Positions 5,793 to 32,424 of a stretch of DNA of 64,000 nucleotides are shown here, piece after piece. The translations under genes were made by a program, and so were the position numbers. The stretch comes from Mobula birostris (Eukaryota), in the NCBI RefSeq assembly GCF_030028105.1, contig NC_092371.1:65862057-65926056 (forward strand), read 5' to 3'. A model generated the notes under the pieces. That model saw only the letters and a program-made list of their open reading frames with translations. It made no database searches and was not told the DNA's origin. How positions within the stretch are numbered: the stretch's first letter is position 1; each line of letters begins with the position of its first letter.

Positions 5793-5972
5793 GAAGACAA
5801 TTTAGAATAGTGAGATTGTTATTCACTACCAGTGAGTATTTGAGGCATGTGGTTTGAATCCATTTATTGCAAAGACGGACATGCACAGAAGTGATGGTAA
5901 GAGATGGTTATGCTGAAGTCATAAGAGGAAATCTGGGAGTTGGGGTGTAGAATAAACAACTGATTGGTCTCG

Positions 5973-6213
5973 TGTAATATTTTGTAACTACAAAACAAAA
6001 AAAAATTAGAAAAACATGAGAACGGGAAATGAGAGTCTAATTTCGTGATTACTTTAAGCAAGGCATGCACGTATCACCTAGTGTCATGATAAATGCAATT
6101 CACTTATTTTTACATATCACCCATAATGAATTATTTAAATGAACAAGAATTCTTAATCAAACAATATATTTATGACATTACTCAAATACTACTGAAAGGT
6201 TAAGTACACAACA
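5973..6213 (-). mobile_element. Solo LTR of the same Gypsy family as the 16.5-20.2 kb element
   Basis: Starts TGTaatattttgtaact and ends tactactgaaa..acACAACA; colinear with LTRs at 16512-16756 and 19231-20171. Confidence 0.8.
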
Positions 6214-11068: not shown

Positions 11069-11167
11069 GGAAGGTGATTGGTGGTTAGGCCGGTCCCTCG
11101 CTACAGGAAACACTGGATACATCCCCAGCAATTATGTTGCACCTTCTGACTCCATTCAGGCTGAAGA
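11069..11167 (+). CDS. SRC: SRC coding exon, C-terminal half of SH3 ([32 protein letters not shown])
   Basis: Pyrimidine tract plus tgcag acceptor and ga|gtaaat donor; 99 bp, the size of the orthologous SRC exon; WWL and APSDS are SRC-type (YES/FYN have WWEARS, APADS/APVDS). Confidence 0.95.
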
Positions 11168-12760: not shown

Positions 12761-14726
12761 TAAGGTATGATTTCCTCTATTGCGAAAGGGTATAATATCA
12801 AACCTAAGCAGTTCCAAAATTGAAACTGTGTTGAAGCCATGTTTTCTTTTGATAAGTGGTGCACAGTTGACTTTGTAGCAGAATTGGCAGTGAATGTGTG
12901 TAATGACAAAGCAGGACTTGAGTTAGCTAATGTCACCTATTGCAGCAACACCATGGATTTATGGGAAAATTGGGCAAGTTTCTTACTCCCGATCACCAAC
13001 TCTAAATCACTATTCTACATCTATGAACATTTGGTGAAGATAAAATTGAGATTGACAGGAAGGGTAATATTTGGGATGGGTGCAGATGGTGGTAGAATTC
13101 CATGCAGTCACTAAACACACTCTGCCTGTACTCACCCCCACAGATGAATTCATTCCAAATAACACCCTCTTGTATATATGTAGCACTAGTGATTGAAGAC
13201 AGAGATGAGGAGGGATTATTCCAACTGTTAAATGCATCCTAATAGCAATATTACTTCATTGGTGAATAAATTTTGGGCTAGACAATTTAAGTCGGGCAAC
13301 CCTAGAGCTATGAAGATCAAGATGACCATGGATTTAGACTACAATGAGAAGATAACAAGACATAGGACCAGAATTAGGCCATACAACTTATTGAGGCTGC
13401 TCCCCCATTCGATCTTGGTGACTGATTATCCCTCTCAACTCCATTTTCCATGATCTATCACGGACTTTATACAAGTAACTTGTGTTGTTCCTGAAGCCAG
13501 AAACCTTGGATATCCTTAAATTAAACCAGCTTAAAATATATATACTTTTAACATTTATTTTTGAATTAAATTAAATATGGCTGTAATAAGCTGTAATGAG
13601 CAGCAAGTTATTTGTGGATGTTGGAGAACCATCGAGAAGGGGCAAGATAAGGAGAAGGCAGGGGAATTGTTCCTTTGTAAAAAAATGGGGACAAGATTAA
13701 AAAATAGAACATCTGAAAGATAATCCTGAGAAGTTGCTTTGGTACTTCAGAGGTTAAACATGCTGCTTGGAGGGCTCCAGCTCTGGAAGGAAGATTTCTT
13801 CGATTCTTTCAACTCAGCAGGTTATTGGTGCCTTGGCTGTGAGCACAGTGGGGGCTGCAGTGAAGGAATCAGTCCTTAGCTGGGAAGTGCTGGTACAGAA
13901 AGAAAAATTACTGAGATGCTACAGAAAATGTCATTATCCAAGAACCAACCTACTGGAAAATTTATTCTCCGATGTATCTCCAAATCTACACTTTGAGGCA
14001 AGCCACCTGAATTATTGAAGCTGCTATCTAGGGGGCATATGTATTATTAATGGACTATAGTGTGTGGTCTCAACACAGTGTATGATTGACTATTTGAAGA
14101 CATGTTTGAGAGAAAGATTAGTATTTGGTTGAATTTGAAAGGGTTAGCTTGGAGCAGGGAATAATTCACTCTGATTGCAATGTTAATGGCCAAATTTTAA
14201 ATCCACCTGAACAATATGCATTGGTAATATTGATTACCCTAGCCAGATTTTTGCAGCAGTAACTACCTTTGCCCTCTGGGATTCAGATTCCATTATTGAT
14301 CATGTGCAGCAAAACAGTGAAATGCATCATTTGCATTAACAACCAACACAGCCTAAGGATGTGCTGAGGGCAGCCCACTAGTGTTAAAGGTAGATTTAAT
14401 ATCAAAGCACATATATGTCACCATATATAACACTGACATTTGTTTCCTTGTAGGCATACTCTTTAAATCCAATAACCATAATAGTATTAATGAAAGACCA
14501 CACCCAAAGGGGCAGACAATCAGTGTGCAAAAGACAACAAATTGCACAAATACAAAAGAATAAATAAATAAATAAATAAACAATAAATATGGAGAACAGG
14601 AGATGAAGAGTCCTTGAAAGTGAGTCCTTGAAAGTTGTGGGAACAGTTCAGTGATGGCGTGAGTGAAGTTATCCCCCATTTCAAGAGCCTGATGGCCACA
14701 CATTCTGGAACCAACACAGTACGACA

Positions 14727-14865
14727 AGACAAAATGCACTTTAATTAAACAGGATGACTGACAATAGTTGACAATGCTCACCAGAACAACACAGTAACTG
14801 TTACAGCTCAGAAACCATTGTCAACTATTGTCAGTCATCCTGTTTAATTAAAGTGCATTTTGTCT
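14727..14865. repeat. Perfect 50-bp inverted repeat with 39-bp spacer (MITE-like)
   Basis: 14727-14776 is the exact reverse complement of 14816-14865. Confidence 0.92.
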
Positions 14866-16303
14866 AGACATACATGTACTGGCTGCTGATTATAAGGCAC
14901 AAGGGACTGTACAGCAGTGGTAGCTTCCAAGGTTGCAGTCTCCCTCCTAATATTTCCAAATTGCCAGTGAATTCACTCTGGTATACCCTCACCCCATTCC
15001 CAAAAGTGTGGCGTTACAACATCAAGAGTGTTCAGTGCTGGCTGTATCATTGCAGCTTGTTGGGAGAGAGACAGATATTAGGCAATGACTATTCCGTTTA
15101 ACAAACTAAAAATAGTTATGAAAACCATTTTAAAATGGCTGCTTTTGACTCAAGTAAGTAATGTGGATTTATCTCTTATCAGTTGTTAAAGGATGCCTCA
15201 AAATCTTCACATTCAACAAGCTATTAATGTAGTGTAGACACTTATTGCATAGAAACAAGGTAACCAAGTACTTAGCACCGATGTCCACAATTACAATGTG
15301 ACCAATTGCCAGAGAATCTTGAGAGCTTTGTTTTGCCAAAGCCCCCAAGAGAATTCTACTTTTACTCATGAAATACTGTGATTAATTTCATAATGTCAAA
15401 CAGGGTAATATTCTGATCTGAAGGACAATACCATGCTCTTTTTTTTTGTGCTGAACTCAAATGGTATTTTAGATTATGTGTCACATCCTAAAAGGACCTT
15501 AGAATAGAGAGTTGAGTCAAGAAGATTGATGGAAAAACAATTGTTTTTAAGATCCCCTCCTGGAGAACTGAAAGGATACATTGTGTGAAATCACAAAGGC
15601 ATCTAATCTTTGAAAATCAAAAAGAAAAATAGCCAGAAAAGAAGCCCAAATGGCACTTTTAATTATTTTCATTAATTCATTCAATGAATTGGTTACCTAT
15701 TAAAAAGTCTCTGTGGAGAACAATCGTTGTGGTTAAAATCCCTTGTTACCAAAGCTAATGGGATGGTTAATTTATATATACAAGGTATGTATGTTTGCTG
15801 AAATTCCAAACAGATGTAGCATTTAACTTTATAATGTTTAATAAGGCTGCTTGATTGAGCTATTCTGACCAAAAAGGGGCTTTCTGGACTAAATTTGAGA
15901 GCTAAAGGATTGGTAATCCAACAATTCAATGCACCATACTCTTTTTATTTTGATATCCAGTTGGCTTTCAAGCATAACGTAAAGACTTGACACTTTAAAA
16001 GAAGAATTGTGAAATGAATTATTGAATGCAGTGGTGGGGTAAAAGTGCTAAAAATTGCAATGAAGTTGGTGGTGGCGTTTAATGACTATTGTTTCTAGTC
16101 TCATTAGTGAAAGCGCCATCGTTTCCTTAGAATGACTTTTTGATTATTGAACTGTGTAATTCTGTTGGAATTTTCAGCAAAATGGAGTAAAAAGTGCCAG
16201 GTTTGATGGAGTGGCAATAACTGAATATCTTTCAGTCATGCTTGTTAAAATTATCATAACTGTGCACAGTGACCTTGAACTGGAATTGTTTGACTCCTTT
16301 CAG

Positions 16304-16407
16304 GTGGTATTTTGGGAAGATTACTCGAAGAGAATCAGAACGAATGTTACTCAGCCCTGAAAATCCCAGAGGTACCTTTTTGGTCAGAGAGAGTGAGACC
16401 ACAAAAG
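16304..16407 (+). CDS. SRC: SRC coding exon, SH2 N-terminal part ([34 protein letters not shown])
   Basis: ctttcag acceptor and aag|gtaatt donor; 104 bp; in phase with the previous exon; FLVRES phosphotyrosine-binding motif; KITRRESER is SRC-diagnostic. Confidence 0.96.
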
Positions 16408-16511
16408 GTAATTATTAATTCTAATGAATGAATGAAATTCCTTTTAGAAAGATATCGTGTTGTTTTCTTTCCCTGTGGAGTTCCTTTGCTAATTGATTTT
16501 TTTTGACTAAA

Positions 16512-16756
16512 TGTAGGATGTTTTGTAACTCCAAAACATAAAACTAATTTAAATGGAAAATGCAGAGTCCAGAATCCAAGGCTAACTTTGTTTATTTGAA
16601 GTGAGCCACACATTCATTATGTGGTGGCGTGATGACATATTCCATTTACGTACTTTTACAGATAACCCACAATGCATTATGTAAACAACAAAGAAAGCCT
16701 AATGAAACAGTGCATTTACAATATTCAAATGCTACTGAAATATTAAATATGCAACA
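16512..16756 (-). repeat. 3' LTR
   Basis: tg..ttttgtaactccaaaaca ... gcAACA, followed by cttctccct (PPT on the minus strand). Left edge uncertain by 2 bp. Confidence 0.85.
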
Positions 16757-16882
16757 CTTCTCCCTGCTTAGCTATAAATTCAATATAGAATGCATCTCAG
16801 CTATATACACAGTATACTATGTAATACAACTACTATATAGATATCCACAGCATAGTACATTTTAAGTTATCCTGTTTAGGCC

Positions 16883-17046
16883 CTAAAGATTTAATTGCTG
16901 TAGAAGATTTCTTGCTCTTGAGGCATAGTGTCTTTCCTGTAAGACACTATGGCAGGTAACCTGTGGCTGGGAAAACAGTCTCCTCCGTGGTGGTTGTAGG
17001 AGTTGACTTTGAGACTGCAGGAAGCATTTCTAATAGCTCCAGGCAC
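16883..17046 (-). pseudogene. Gypsy pol/integrase extreme C-terminal remnant
   Basis: LPAVSKSTPTTTTEE then, after a frameshift, QERHYASRARNLLQQLNL-stop, resembling the RRYPxRxRxPPxRL terminal motif of Gypsy integrases. Confidence 0.65.
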
Positions 17047-17049
17047 CTT

Positions 17050-17740
17050 TCTTCTCCTTTTCTTGGCTTTTCTGTCTGGATCTACTTCGATCCTTGCTTT
17101 TCTCCCGGACCCAGTTTCTTTCTCTTTCTCTTTATCCTCCTCTTTCTTTTCCTTTTTCTTTTTTCTAGGATGCGCATCTTCATCTTAGGAAGGTGCATTT
17201 AGTTCACTGGAGTGTTCTGTTATTAATCTTTCTATTGCTCCCTTTACAATCTGATCTCTCCTCTTGGTTTTCTCATTCACAACGTCATCTGATAAATCTT
17301 CTGTGATTGGATCTTCATTGACTCCTTTATTTTTGGCCTTCCATTCATGCAGCTGGGCTTTGGTCTTTGCATCTACTTTTACAAGCAGCTTTTTGTCTCC
17401 TACATGAAGTTCATGCAATAACCTTAATGCACGCAGAGTAGATTCTGGTTCATTATACTCACAAATGCTGAATGCTTGCAACTTTCCTGAAGCTCCTTGA
17501 ACTCTCTTCCAGCTTAAAACCGAGCCACATTTCACAGATACCTGCATGATTACCATATCAGAAGCTTTCTCAGATATGTCGCCCACAAAAACGATTGTAG
17601 TCAAACCACTGCTTTCATCACTTTGATAATTCCTCTGAGCAGCATGGTCCTTCCTTGGTACACTAACCAGAGGTACAGAGGTTGGCACCAATACCTGTGT
17701 CCTCTGATGTGCAATGGTTCATGGTGTACAGCATGGACAC
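17050..17740 (-). pseudogene. RBM25: Processed RBM25 fragment (RRM plus part of the RE/RS-rich region) inside the LTR element
   Basis: ORF 17185..17691 VFVGDISEKASDM..SWKRVQGASGKLQAF..EPESTLRALRLLHEL..KKLLVKVDAKTKAQL..SSELNAPS matches RBM25; intronless, no ATG (TTG in the ORF track), stop after APS, substitutions in RNP1/RNP2. Confidence 0.92.
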
Positions 17741-17744
17741 AGTT

Positions 17745-18969
17745 GTGGCATCATCCAGTACTTTTCTTAATTTGCTTTCAGTTGGCTGTTACAAGGGATG
17801 TGGGATAGATCTTCAATCAAGATGTAGTTGTCTCAGCCAGTCATGTCCCCACGGTGCTGGTCCTCCTGTTTTTACCACATACAAGCCCAATGGGTCTTGT
17901 TATAGTTCACTATCACAGATGTCACTCCCACAGGAGTTAGCTTTTCTCCAGTATAAGTTCTTAGTTGGATATCTGCAGGCCTCAGTTTAGTATCTTTGAA
18001 ATCCATTCAGACTCATTTTGTGTAATGACTGATACCGCCGAGCCAGTGTCCAATTCAATTTTAATTAATTTGTGTTCACTTCTGGTATAAGCCATATTGC
18101 TTGGCTCTTGATAGTTTTTACACTGTAACTCTCAAGGCTATTCAGTTCAGCATCACACACCATGACCAGATTTTTCATCAACAACATGCAGATTAATGCT
18201 CTTTTCGAAACTGCAACTTGACTTTTTATCTTTTTCTCTTCCCTGTGCAACCCATTTATTTTTATCTGCCTGACATAAGCTTTGTATGTGTCCTACTTGG
18301 TTGCATTTTCTCCAAGTTTCACCTTTAAGTCTGCATTGGTCTGGTATATCTGAGTCCTTGCCATAACGGTAACAGTTTGTTTGACCAGGCAGTTTCTGTT
18401 TAGACATTGCAATTTTGTTCACGCTCACTTTAATTTCTGACTGCAAGGCAATTGCGTCTCTGTCTGCTGTTTCCATTGGTATAGGAACTTCAACTGCACT
18501 TTGAAATGTAAATTGGGCTTCAGTTAGGAGTTATTTTTGAATGCTTTCTTGTAAGATTCCACGAACTAAACAATTTCTCCATGCACAAGGAAGCCCATTA
18601 CTGAACTGACAATGTTCAGACAATCTCTTAAATTCAGCTACATACGCTGAAATTGACTCCTCTTTCTTTTGGTTCAACTTATGAAACCTAAAGTGTGCTG
18701 CAATCAACAATGGTTTCAGCTCTAAGTATTTCTGCATTACTTTCATGATCGTCTTTATTTTCACAAAGCTCATTTTGGCTGGTTTGGTTGGATCAGTCAA
18801 ACTCCTAAGCAAACTGTATGGTTCTCCACCCAATGCACTCTGTCAAACTGGTATTTGTTTCTCATCTGCTATTTCATTTGCATTAAAATAATGTTCAATC
18901 TATTCCATATATATTCCAGTTACCTTTTGTGTAATCAAATATATCAATATTTTGGATGCAGCCAGCCAC
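17745..18969 (-). pseudogene. Gypsy gag-protease remnant
   Basis: YSLLRSLTDPTKP..RFHKLNQKKEESISAYVAEFKRLSEHCQF (gag), CYRYGKDSD..CNQVGHIQSLC (decayed CCHC), ELDTGSAVSVI (aspartic protease, ~18030-18056); stops and frameshifts present. Confidence 0.88.
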
Positions 18970-19230
18970 TTCTGCCCCTTTTTAAAATGATTATCACCAG
19001 GTACTGTTTATGAAACCAAGAATTCTTCTGTTTTCTCCCTATTTTTGTTTACTCGATTGTCTTTTCTTTCACAAAGAAAACATGCTGCTCGAAAGAAAAG
19101 AAAATGAGCTGTGCTTTTTTAAAACTTGACTGTTTCTCACTGCACTTCTTTTTAAAAGCTGCAATGTCTCGCTACGCTTCAGCAGGAAGGTAGTCATCTT
19201 GGGTTCACTTTAAAAATACCTCGTCATCAC

Positions 19231-20171
19231 TGTTGTGTTTTGTAACTCCAAAACAAAAAAATTAATTTAAAAGAAAAACGCGTAGAGTCCAGAATGCAAG
19301 TCTGACTTCGTTTTGTACTTTAAGTGAGGCATGTACATATCATGTGGTGGTGTGTTGGCGTATACCGTTTACGTACTGTTATAGATGACCTGCAATGCGT
19401 TATGTAAACAACAAATTCTAAATCAAACGTGATATTAGATTATGAGAACACTCGGTCCTCTTTTTATTGTCATTTAGAAATGCATACATGCATTAAGAAA
19501 TGATACAATGTTTCTCCAGAGTGATATCACAGAAAACAGGACAAACCAAAGACTAACACTGACTGAACCACATAATTATAACATATAGTTACAGCAGTGC
19601 AAAGCAATACCATAATTTGATGAAGAACAAACCATGGGCATGGTAAATAAAGTCTCAAAAGTCCCCGAGTTGATCGACTCCTGAGTCCTCGATAGCAGGT
19701 GGGAAAAGGGAGAAACTTCCTGCCATAAACCTGCAGGCACCGTCAACTTACCGATGCCTTGGAAGCAACCGATCACAGCCGACACGGAGTCCATCCGTCC
19801 AAAAACTTCAAGCTTCCAACCAGCCTCTCCGATACAGCCTCCCGAGCGCCATCCTCTGCCGAGCGCCTTCGACCTTGCTCCGGCCGCTGAAACATGCAAA
19901 GCCGAGGATTTCGGGACCTTCTGCATCAGAGATTCCGTTTACCACACAGTAGCAGCGGCAGCGAAGCAGGCATTTCAGAAGTTTTCCAGATGTTCCTCCG
20001 TACTCTCACGTCTGTCTCCATCAAATCAGGATTGTGCACGGTCCCCTACTTGACAGATAACAGACATCACCACCGAAGTGGCCGCGTGCACTGCCGTCGC
20101 GCCGCCATCTTCTCCTCCCTCCCACATTCACAATATTACTCAAATACTACTGAAATATTAAATACACAACA
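19231..20171 (-). repeat. 5' LTR, split by a ~690-bp insertion
   Basis: TGTtgtgttttgtaactccaaaac at 19231; LTR sequence resumes ~20124 and ends acACAACA at 20171. Confidence 0.85.
19434..20123 (-). mobile_element. Short non-autonomous non-LTR retroelement nested in the LTR
   Basis: GC-rich 5' end aagatggcggcg; 3' end gacaataaa..ctcataatcta(a); the same tail occurs on + at ~32200-32298. Confidence 0.7.
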
Positions 20172-20461
20172 TTCACAATCAATTATGCACCATAATGGCA
20201 TATTAATGTACTGAGGAGTAGCAGACTTTTGTAATCTTGTACATACTGGTTGTACAATCCAAGAATATCTTCAATGGACTTAGCCAAAATCAATTGAAAT
20301 CTACCCTGCTGCTGAGATCGATGCATTCTTCTGCATTTAAAAGAAATTGAGTTATTAAGCAAATGAAAGGACAGATCCTTTTCAATAGGAGAGGCTCATG
20401 ACGGAAATATGAATATCGTGATTATTTTGCACCGATTTTCCCAGCCATGGAGGGTTTTTCA

Positions 20462-20780
20462 GGGGTAGCACAGTAGCGTAGTGGTTAGCACAACACTTTA
20501 TAGTACCAGCGACCTGGTTTCAATTCCCACTGTTGTCTGTAAGGAGTTGTATGTTCTCCCCGTGACCGTGTGGGTTTCCTATAGGTGCTCTGTTTCCTCC
20601 CACAGGTCAAAGATGCACCGGTTGGTAGGTTAATTGGTCATTGTACACTGTCCCATGATGTTCTGTTTGCGCTGGAAGTGCACTGACACTTGAGGGCTGC
20701 CACCAGCACACTTGTTGCTGATCTGATTTGACGCAAAGAATGCATTTCATGTATGTTTTGATGTACATGTTAAACTGAGC
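20462..20780 (+). mobile_element. V-SINE copy
   Basis: A box tagcgtagtgg, B box gtttcaattcc and V core. Confidence 0.8.
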
Positions 20781-21745: not shown

Positions 21746-22222
21746 TAGTCATAGTCATAGTTATAGTCACACTTTATTGATCCCGGGGGAGATTGGTTTT
21801 CGTTACAGTTGCACCATAAGTAATAAATAGTAATAGAACCATAAATAGTTAAATAGTAATATGTAAATTATGCCAGTAAATTATGAACTGTCCAGGACCA
21901 GCCTATTGGCTCAGGGTCTCTGATCCTCCAAGGGAGGAGTTGTAAAGTTTGATGGCCACAGGCAGGAATGACTTTCTATCACGCCCTGTGATGCATCTTG
22001 GTGGAATCAGTCTCTGGCTGAATGTACTCCTGTGCCCACCCAGTACATTATGTAGTGGATGGGAGATATTGTCCAAGATGGCATGCAACTTAGACAGCAT
22101 CCTCTTTTCAGACACCACCGTCAGAGAGTCCAGTTCCATCCCCACAACATCACTGGCCTTATGAATGAGCTTATTGATTCTGTTGGTGTCTGCCACCCTC
22201 AGCCTGCTGCCCCAGCACACAA
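21746..22222 (-). mobile_element. Rex1/Babar-like LINE 3' end with (GACTAT)n tail
   Basis: ORF 21903..22235 VVCWGS..SHPLH..RKSFLPVAIKLYN. Confidence 0.8.
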
Positions 22223-22686
22223 CATTCCTGATCAAAACTTCTCCATGGACGGCTTCCAGACCATTCCAGCTGACCAGAAGTGCACTGAGAGCGGTAAGCG
22301 TAAAGGAGTTGGGTGCTTACTGTTCTGGTTAACAACAGATGGTGCAACTCGGGTCATATTACGATCGAGGAACGTGTTTGTAGACCGGATATTGAACTTT
22401 TTACTGTTGGACTTCGGCCACATTCCACCGAGATACAACACCGGGTGGCACGGGAGGTCGTTCCTGCCTGTGGCCATCGAACGTGCAGCTCCTCCCATGG
22501 AGGGTCAGACACCCTGCGCCAATAGACTGGTTCTGGACTTATTTTCCATCTGGCATAGTTTGCATTTTGTTGCTTGATTGTTTGTGGTTTTTGTATTGCT
22601 ATATTTACGCTCTATTCTTGGTTGGTGCGGCTGTAACGAAACCAAATTTTCCTTGGGATTAATAAAATATATCTATCTATCTATCT
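22223..22686 (+). mobile_element. Rex1/Babar-like LINE, endonuclease fragment fused to a 3' end with (TATC)n tail
   Basis: DGFQTIxADxKCTESGKRKG..VNNRWC (APE), then RSFLPVAI and aataaa(tatc)n. Confidence 0.75.
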
Positions 22687-23066
22687 ATATTGCGGTGTTT
22701 TTGCGCACTTGTCATACCTTCCCCTATCTCGCCGTGCTTTCATGCACCTCCCATAGCTTCCCCTACATCGCTGTGTTTTCGCACACCTCCCATAGCTTCC
22801 CCTATATCGCTGTTTTCACGCACCTCCCATAGCTTCCCCTACATCGCTATGTTTTCGCGCACCTCCCATAGCTTCCTCTATATCGCTGTGTTTTCGCGCA
22901 CCTCCCATAGCTTTCCCTGTATCACTGTGTTTTCGCGCACCTCTCATACCTTCCCCTATATCGCTGTGTTTTCGCGCACCTCCCATAGCTTCCCCTATAT
23001 CGCCGTGTTTTTGCGCACCTCTCATAGCTTCCCTTATATTGCCTTGTTTTCGTGCACCTCTCATAC
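22685..23066. repeat. 39-bp minisatellite, about 10 units
   Basis: Unit cctcccatagcttcccctatatcgctgtgttttcgcgca. Confidence 0.95.
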
Positions 23067-23094
23067 TAGGAAGTACATAGTAACCAAATGGCAA

Positions 23095-30897: not shown

Positions 30898-32424
30898 ATG
30901 GTGAGAAAGGAGAAGAGAAGATGTGAGAGGGCCACCAGAATGGGGAGAAAACAAAAAGGTAATGGGGTGGTGTAAACTAAACTCTTATAAAGGTTAGGCA
31001 GTGTCATATATTAACAGTCTTGTTGGTTGATATTGGCTCAGACCAATGCATGAATAACAATGAAACAGGTTGAATGTGACTCGAATTCAGACCTAGAGCC
31101 AGCAGGCTGGGTAGGTATGAGGCCACAAAAATTACTAAAAACATTGGAAAACAGTCAAAAAGCTGATTCACAGAACAGTATTAGGTGAATGAATATCGAC
31201 GTGTATTTTATAGCAAATTGCAAAATTTACTTCTATACTTTCCTTTTTAAAAATGTTTACATACACACTTTTCAATCAGGCTTGGCTGATGGAGAAAAAT
31301 CATGGTACCAAGTTTATTTGATATATTTGTGTGTATGTTATACAGAATATTGCAATGCTTGTGAGCATGCATTTCATTATAATTCAATAATTGCTGTTAT
31401 TTCAGTTGGTCTATGCTATAGAACACATTTCTTTTGAAGAAAGTATTTGCAAGTCCGTATACATCTTGGATTTCTGAAAGATGTTCTCATTGATGCAGCA
31501 TATTGATTTTACAACTAAATTAGTTCAACTTACCAGGCAAAATAACCTGAAAATTAGCATTTCATGTCTTGGTGTCTTGAAGAATGCTCGGGTTTTGAAG
31601 CATCTGCAAAGTTGATTTGTATGCAAGTCCTGTCCTAGTATGAAGGAAAATTTTATTCCCATTCACTTAATGGTGCTACATGGAAATTCCTCTTTCATTT
31701 AAGTCATGTCAGTTCATAAATTTGCTTGTCTGGCTAAGGCAATGCTGACATGCTCTAACATTTCTGCACCTGGACTGTGTGCTTCTCTGAACATTCTTGA
31801 GTTACACTTTTGCTTTCATGGTCATAATTTCAAAATTGTCTCACTAGTCCTCTGCCCTTCTATATTTGATTTCTTAAAGTTAGTGCTGCATGGTGAAAAT
31901 TTGTTAGATGCTTGTGCTTAGCATTCTCAGGGCTATGAGGAAAGGAAATATCTAGCAAGTTTCCTGTCTCCCCCCCCCCCCCCACCCCAGCCCCATCACA
32001 GTCTTTCGCAAAAATCCTCTATTACTCGACATAAGTCCATTGTGTTAACGTTAATTATTTGTGAGAGCAGTCCACATGTGATCCCAATCTCTCCTCAGAT
32101 CTTTGAGATTTTCTGGTCTTTGCACTATATCCAGTTTTTCTTTAGAGGCCAGGACCATTTATGTTTACTAAGTAAGTGCATTACCCTTTTTGTGTAGTAT
32201 AACTCTGGAGGAACATTGTATCATTTCTTAATGCATGCATGCATTTCTAAATGACAATAAATGCGGACTGAGTGTCCTCATAATCTAATCTAATCTAAAA
32301 AACATCTCTCAAGTATCCAGGTTGCAGTTGCCTGTTATGAATTACAAATTGTTTAATACAAATATTAACATAAGATTTTTATGATTAATATTTTGTGCAG
32401 TTGCTTTTCAGTCATCAACTTCAG

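Follow-up and report, generated by a model that had tools for sequence, protein, structure and literature searches.

Tan et al. (2016) described retrocopies in which partial mRNAs replace internal open reading frames (ORFs) between LTRs of the same family, with microsimilarity at the junctions and with neither poly(A) nor TSD (PMC5131818). The available part of that report counts 15/15 polymorphic cases in fly, 5/7 in zebrafish, 4/10 in chicken, 8 in mouse, and 3 in human; in the L1-rich mammals, most retrocopies flanked by LTRs did not pass the filters (208 to 8 in mouse and 518 to 3 in human). Some captures were copied again in trans, and secondary amplification is already published for vertebrates and flies.

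Here we analyzed a window of 64,000 nucleotides of Mobula birostris (NC_092371.1, positions 65,862,057 to 65,926,056, forward strand; assembly GCF_030028105.1). On its minus strand, positions 16512 to 20171 hold a decayed LTR element in which RBM25 sequence stands where pol is expected. The order set out by a first-pass annotation of this DNA (LTR, PBS, gag, zinc knuckle, protease, RBM25, C-terminal tail, PPT, LTR) holds at the coordinates given below. We regard LTR-mediated retroposition of RBM25 by template switching as the probable origin of this arrangement.

Compared with the cases in the available part of PMC5131818, the window locus has the features listed for the LTR-mediated mechanism and differs in its chondrichthyan host, its RBM25 parent, and its much older LTRs, which are 16% apart. 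Maize Bs1 and fly CG17604_r and CG10212_r, as presented there, have the same nonautonomous layout with all cis signals kept; they exist in several copies with shared switch points and were moved in trans, whereas the window element is known from one copy with broken frames. The nectin3 and KIT-ligand captures of CrocERV31 (PMC4299795, available part) likewise place host mRNA in an LTR element of a nonmammalian vertebrate, and in the nectin3 case an element gene was lost to the capture, as it was here. The CrocERV31 elements, however, are multicopy retroviruses whose ORFs are intact and under purifying selection, while the window element is a Gypsy element without pol whose insert has decayed at about the neutral rate. 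The mechanism is already known; the combination of a chondrichthyan host and an RBM25 parent was not found in the literature searched, which yielded no paper on RBM25 in shark retrotransposons or on LTR-mediated retrocopies in cartilaginous fish and excluded most subscription journals. To a retroposition route that was already described, the locus adds a single old and inactive case from cartilaginous fishes.

LTRs and cis-acting signals

Both LTRs start with TGTTG and finish with ACA on the minus strand. The 5′ LTR (TG...CA; 19231 to 20171) is interrupted by a later insertion, and its alignment with the 3′ LTR (16512 to 16756) was made as two parts, one on each side of that insertion. The LTRs are identical at 200 of 237 aligned sites (84%), with a K2P distance of 0.177, which supplies the LTR-LTR dating that the first-pass annotation had proposed and with which the decay of the RBM25 insert agrees (see below). 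A solo LTR of the same family lies at 5972 to 6213 (minus strand) in an upstream intron of SRC, in the same orientation and with 74 to 76% identity to the element LTRs; PBS, PPT, and TSD were looked for at its flanks, and none was seen. It stands at K values of 0.305 and 0.321 from the element LTRs, compared with 0.177 between the two of them; since it is more distant from both, each of the element's LTRs has the other as its nearest relative in the window.

The later insertion (19434 to 20123, borders approximate, minus strand) spans ~690 bp with a GC content of 0.49 and a CpG observed/expected ratio of 0.83. It is confined to the 5′ LTR and missing from the other two LTR copies in the window. 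The final 103 nt of this GC- and CpG-rich sequence match positions 32188 to 32289 (plus strand) at 89% identity and are the sole part that recurs in the window; this repeated 3′ tail suggests a LINE/SINE-like insertion. Because the sequence is present in the 5′ LTR alone and its tail recurs elsewhere, we place its arrival after integration. The CpG observed/expected ratio of the LTRs themselves, from small counts, is 1.34 in the 5′ LTR (19231 to 19436) and 0.31 in the 3′ LTR (16512 to 16756).

Directly 3′ of the 5′ LTR is a PBS-like motif, the 12-mer GTGATGACGAGG (19219 to 19230, minus strand), recognized by sequence and position, which may match tRNA-Ser(GCT) with two mismatches. A polypurine tract (16757 to 16769, minus strand; 12 of 13 purines) abuts the 3′ LTR. 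The ends of the element show no TSD of 4 to 6 bp (GTGAA against TTTAG, with two of four positions matching as a 4-bp site), and decay may account for its lack. The cis signals kept are the two LTRs, the PBS-like site, and the PPT.

RBM25 sequence has replaced the pol core

Six K02A2.6-like polyproteins match the window by tblastn from position 18914 (18839 for one that is N-terminally short) to ~17738, corresponding to amino acids 20 to ~415. Within this stretch, the decayed gag (18156 to 18971, minus strand) was matched at 39 to 48% identity with E values of 1e-54 to 1e-69. Three stops interrupt its 272 codons, an ATG is lacking where the start is expected, and the frame breaks near 18915; two degenerate CCHC zinc knuckles lie at about 18374 to 18273 (minus strand), and the Retrotrans_gag profile gave a weak match below its cutoff. 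A gag query read through one stop retrieved 20 proteins from 692 candidates, and almost all of the 20 are Gypsy-type polyproteins. Every named protein among them comes from a ray-finned fish, and none is chondrichthyan named. Downstream lies a decayed aspartic protease and the linker before RT (17750 to 18155, minus strand), located by tblastn in two to three frames and by the Pfam domains of an intact relative, P0243. Its DTG is at 18050 to 18042 (minus strand), and the region holds several frameshifts and stops.

RT, RNase H, and integrase gave no match anywhere in the window with any of the six polyproteins (tblastn), as the first-pass annotation had reported for RT, RNase H, and the integrase core. 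In P0243 these domains occupy amino acids 505 to 1141. Teleost K02A2.6-like polyproteins such as XP_057202332 and XP_055076811 share the gag-knuckle-protease order and the terminal motif with the window element but carry PR-RT-RH-IN, which it lacks. Since the polyprotein matches end at ~17738 and the terminal motif resumes at 16936, ~840 pol codons (~2.5 kb) are gone, with 0.7 kb of RBM25 in their place. The element is thus discontinuous at the insert by far more than 20 bp, and pol is replaced by the RBM25 piece rather than interrupted by it.

The 3′ end of the polyprotein was located with a motif model of 17 terminal residues, built from 10 of 14 long relatives; the remaining four end differently and were not included. 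Its best score is at 16936, rank 1 among 127,894 six-frame positions, and a stop follows the motif (16936 to 16886). We delimit the C-terminal tail as 16883 to 17044 (minus strand), of which 17044 to 16937 is assigned to the putative tail by position and composition alone. A 44-amino-acid stretch, 16950 to 17081, had no match among 1.84 billion representatives and no usable match in the ESM Atlas. The paired TG...CA LTRs, the PBS-like site and PPT, and a gag and protease homologous to those of PR-RT-RH-IN elements together point to a Gypsy (Metaviridae-type) element, an assignment that applies to a copy without RT.

The insert resembles spliced chondrichthyan-type RBM25 mRNA

The insert comprises two pieces on the minus strand. 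The first (17137 to 17749) contains a chondrichthyan-type extra segment, the whole RRM (17592 to 17386), and the region after it, with one stop and gaps of 14 and 9 nt; its best match is Heptranchias perlo XP_067833824 (80% identity over 191 amino acids). The frame at 17188 to 17718 covers the whole RRM_1 domain (profile positions 1 to 69 of 70), and its named vertebrate matches, among those listed, are RBM25 or RRM-domain proteins of the RBM25 family; a PDB search with the frame returned generic RRMs only (4 sequences). The second piece (17045 to 17136, borders approximate) is part of the RE/RD-rich region with its SKDRSRS motif and was found by tblastn at 51 to 56% identity over 37 to 39 amino acids to gar, bichir, and paddlefish RBM25, in low-complexity sequence. 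It lies after a frameshift and an internal gap at 17136, which amounts to ~280 to 300 nt when RBM25s of four ray-finned fishes serve as the reference; 106 to 112 codons of those proteins correspond to 38 nt in the window. The ~690 bp of RBM25 with a whole RRM described by the first-pass annotation is accordingly confirmed in its RRM and its lack of introns at four borders and amended in its extent, to ~705 nt (17749 to 17045) in two pieces.

XP_067833824 begins with a segment, MLYTMN..., that the window carries at 17734 to 17702 and that occurs in 3 of 190 collected RBM25-type proteins, each of them a member of the Heptranchias cluster. The presence of this segment identifies the source as a chondrichthyan-type RBM25 transcript, and the captured sequence begins ~55 nt upstream of the point where teleost RBM25 aligns. 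In chondrichthyan-type RBM25, 16 to 20 extra amino acids precede the RRM exon (window 17738 to 17695), with two splice forms in Heptranchias. The window's version lacks 14 nt of the long form at 17702, through a deletion or as a further splice form. The locus documents a chondrichthyan-type RBM25 splice form.

Exon borders were placed from 19 named gene models of other species, in which ends, starts, and insertions cluster at 17695/4 (three models start or diverge), 17533/2 (one), ~17476 (three), 17317/6 (five), and 17137/6 (four). The insert passes the first four positions without an intron and so crosses at least four predicted borders; at the fifth, the window reads GAT, with no GT donor. 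With intron positions taken from other species' gene models, these data are consistent with an origin from spliced mRNA.

The insert is in sense orientation to the element and is shortened at both its 5′ and 3′ ends. Its longest A run is 6 nt and coding. A poly(A) tail and TSD around the RBM25 piece, the finding that the first-pass annotation had named as contradicting capture, were looked for, and neither was found; no direct repeat abuts both junctions, the best candidate being a 6-mer 19 nt outside the 5′ junction.

At the 5′ junction, the parents overlap by four residues, A-T-T-V (17738 to 17749, minus strand), which at the protein level fit the register and the reading frame of each parent. 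The junction reads LDDATTVSMLY: its V aligns with the V of a V-F motif in 14 Gypsy relatives (the motif was located in 14 of 19 examined), and ATTVSM is the reading of a shark-type RBM25, P0263, at the same place. The overlap keeps the pol frame, which chance would do one time in three. The 3′ junction is purine rich on both sides; the microsimilarity shown is this protein-level overlap at the 5′ junction.

The insert seems about as old as the integration

Among 107 RBM25 residues invariant in 11 named references, 17 are changed in the insert (16%; confidence interval, 10 to 24%). Neutral decay over half the LTR distance (about 0.09) would give 17%, and the insert fits this expectation (P = 0.40). 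The agreement between observed and predicted values indicates that insert and integration are of about the same age and that the insert has decayed without constraint. Both RNP1 and RNP2 are changed. A functional, living retrogene is ruled out by these changes together with the stop, the frameshifts, and the neutral-rate decay, and the locus is a dead, pseudogenized retrocopy.

Gag exceeds the divergence expected from the LTR age, with changes in 21 of its 77 invariant residues (27%; P = 0.02 versus 17%), a figure that is inflated because the references are teleost elements. Compared directly with the RBM25 insert, the difference gives a Fisher P value of 0.067 when 9 references are used and of 0.0035 when only the 4 closest are. 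The excess could mean that the element is older than the insert.

Origin of the chimera

Template switching during reverse transcription would account for this arrangement. In a Gypsy (Metaviridae-type) particle, RT would have switched, close to the 3′ end of the element RNA, onto a copackaged, spliced RBM25 mRNA and copied it, beginning in the RE/RD-rich region and stopping a little upstream of the RRM. A short stretch of similarity would then have brought RT back onto the element RNA, at the boundary between the protease and RT regions. The internal RBM25 gap could have arisen by a third switch, among purine repeats, or by deletion at a later time. The chimeric cDNA, retaining both LTRs, the PBS, and the PPT, would then have integrated antisense into an SRC intron and decayed neutrally since. 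We infer the switches and their timing from the structure of the locus.

The capture of spliced mRNA that the first-pass annotation proposed draws support from flanks of the same LTR family, replacement of pol, truncation of the insert at both ends, its sense orientation, the junction overlap, the lack of poly(A) and TSD, and decay that equals the LTR age. Several criteria of Tan et al. have a counterpart here: same-family LTR flanks, discontinuity of more than 20 bp, no poly(A) or TSD, and, as judged from other species' gene models, exon-exon junctions. Of the four filters in the available part of PMC5131818, one of which uses an outgroup, the locus passes three. Counting against capture are the lack of an element TSD, the overdiverged gag, the later indels, microsimilarity that is shown at the protein level at the 5′ junction and not at the 3′ junction, and the small share of LTR-flanked retrocopies that pass the filters in L1-rich mammals.

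The strongest competing explanation, to which we give a small probability, is a 5′-truncated RBM25 pseudogene made by a LINE and inserted into a resident Gypsy element, followed by one deletion that took its 3′ half, poly(A), and TSD along with RT-integrase. Two events suffice for this, and the locus has demonstrably been altered: the 5′ LTR took a later insertion, and the insert has deletions. For cartilaginous fish genomes, 14,081 retrocopies are reported, with counts that follow non-LTR content (10.64898/2026.06.26.734816, available part), and most LTR-flanked retrocopies in mammals fail the filters (PMC5131818, available part). The apparently greater decay of gag than of the insert would also fit. 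This history, however, needs a sense insertion in a small target and a deletion that stopped just short of the 3′ cis signals. Moreover, the insert's decay equals the LTR age and is not younger, the 5′ overlap is in register, and no remnant of poly(A) or TSD is present. Should capture by an LTR element be correct, some cartilaginous fish retrocopies counted as LINE products may likewise be LTR made.

Microhomology-mediated repair can patch a break with cDNA or RNA and may yield inserts of this kind. Such a repair of the resident element with RBM25 cDNA or RNA, with pol deleted in the same event, would likewise produce a truncated, spliced insert with a junction overlap and no poly(A). It gives no reason for the sparing of the PBS, PPT, and both LTRs or for the sense orientation, and the age of the insert agrees with that of the integration; we consider it very unlikely. 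Duplication of genomic RBM25 at the DNA level and a chimeric assembly both have negligible probability, as no positive point favors either, the four predicted introns are absent, and ~20% divergence from shark RBM25, the stop, and the frameshifts show that this is not a misplaced live gene.

Copies of the chimera

The window contains one chimeric copy. The first-pass annotation had suggested that the chimera may have been mobilized as a family, and sister copies were searched for in protein sets. The best near-length match is 79% identical among the best 120 of 140, and the best longer match is 70% identical among the best 120 of 273. None of the 20 gag matches has an RRM domain, and none of the 190 collected RBM25-type proteins, from sets that underrepresent pseudogenes, is a chimera or shares four window-specific motifs. 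No full-length chondrichthyan-named RBM25 appeared among the matches listed, from protein sets that held few shark RBM25s. Because pseudogenes are missed and shark RBM25s are few, these empty searches are weak evidence. That the chimera founded a nonautonomous Gypsy family in a chondrichthyan lineage, with the window copy as one decayed member, seems to us improbable. Because pol and the 5′ junction share a frame, the founder of such a family may have encoded a Gag-protease-RBM25(RRM) fusion. If it existed, the family may have dispersed sequence derived from RBM25, which could have yielded small RNAs directed at the parental gene or supplied an RNA-binding domain that helped packaging; the locus would gain significance as a multicopy family or as a source of small RNAs against RBM25.

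Setting in the SRC gene

The element lies antisense to SRC, 104 nt downstream of the exon that encodes the first half of SH2 (16304 to 16407, plus strand; Src accounts for the top 27 PDB matches), in an intron of ~25 kb. SRC-like exons near 11115, 41832, 57222, and 62698 (plus strand) lie on both sides of the element, so that the gene extends across the window with very long introns. That v-src is the classic case of capture and that this element sits inside an SRC intron is a coincidence. Exonization of the element into SRC is unlikely because of its antisense orientation.

Rfam returned no matches in 16000 to 20700, and ARAGORN found no tRNA genes in the whole window. LTRs aside, the neighborhood carries a near-perfect, MITE-like inverted repeat at 14719 to 14873 (arms of 58 nt at 95% identity, spacer of 39 nt) and a tandem array with a 39-nt period at 22646 to 23092, with inverted arms on either side at 21763 to 22007 and 22422 to 22676.
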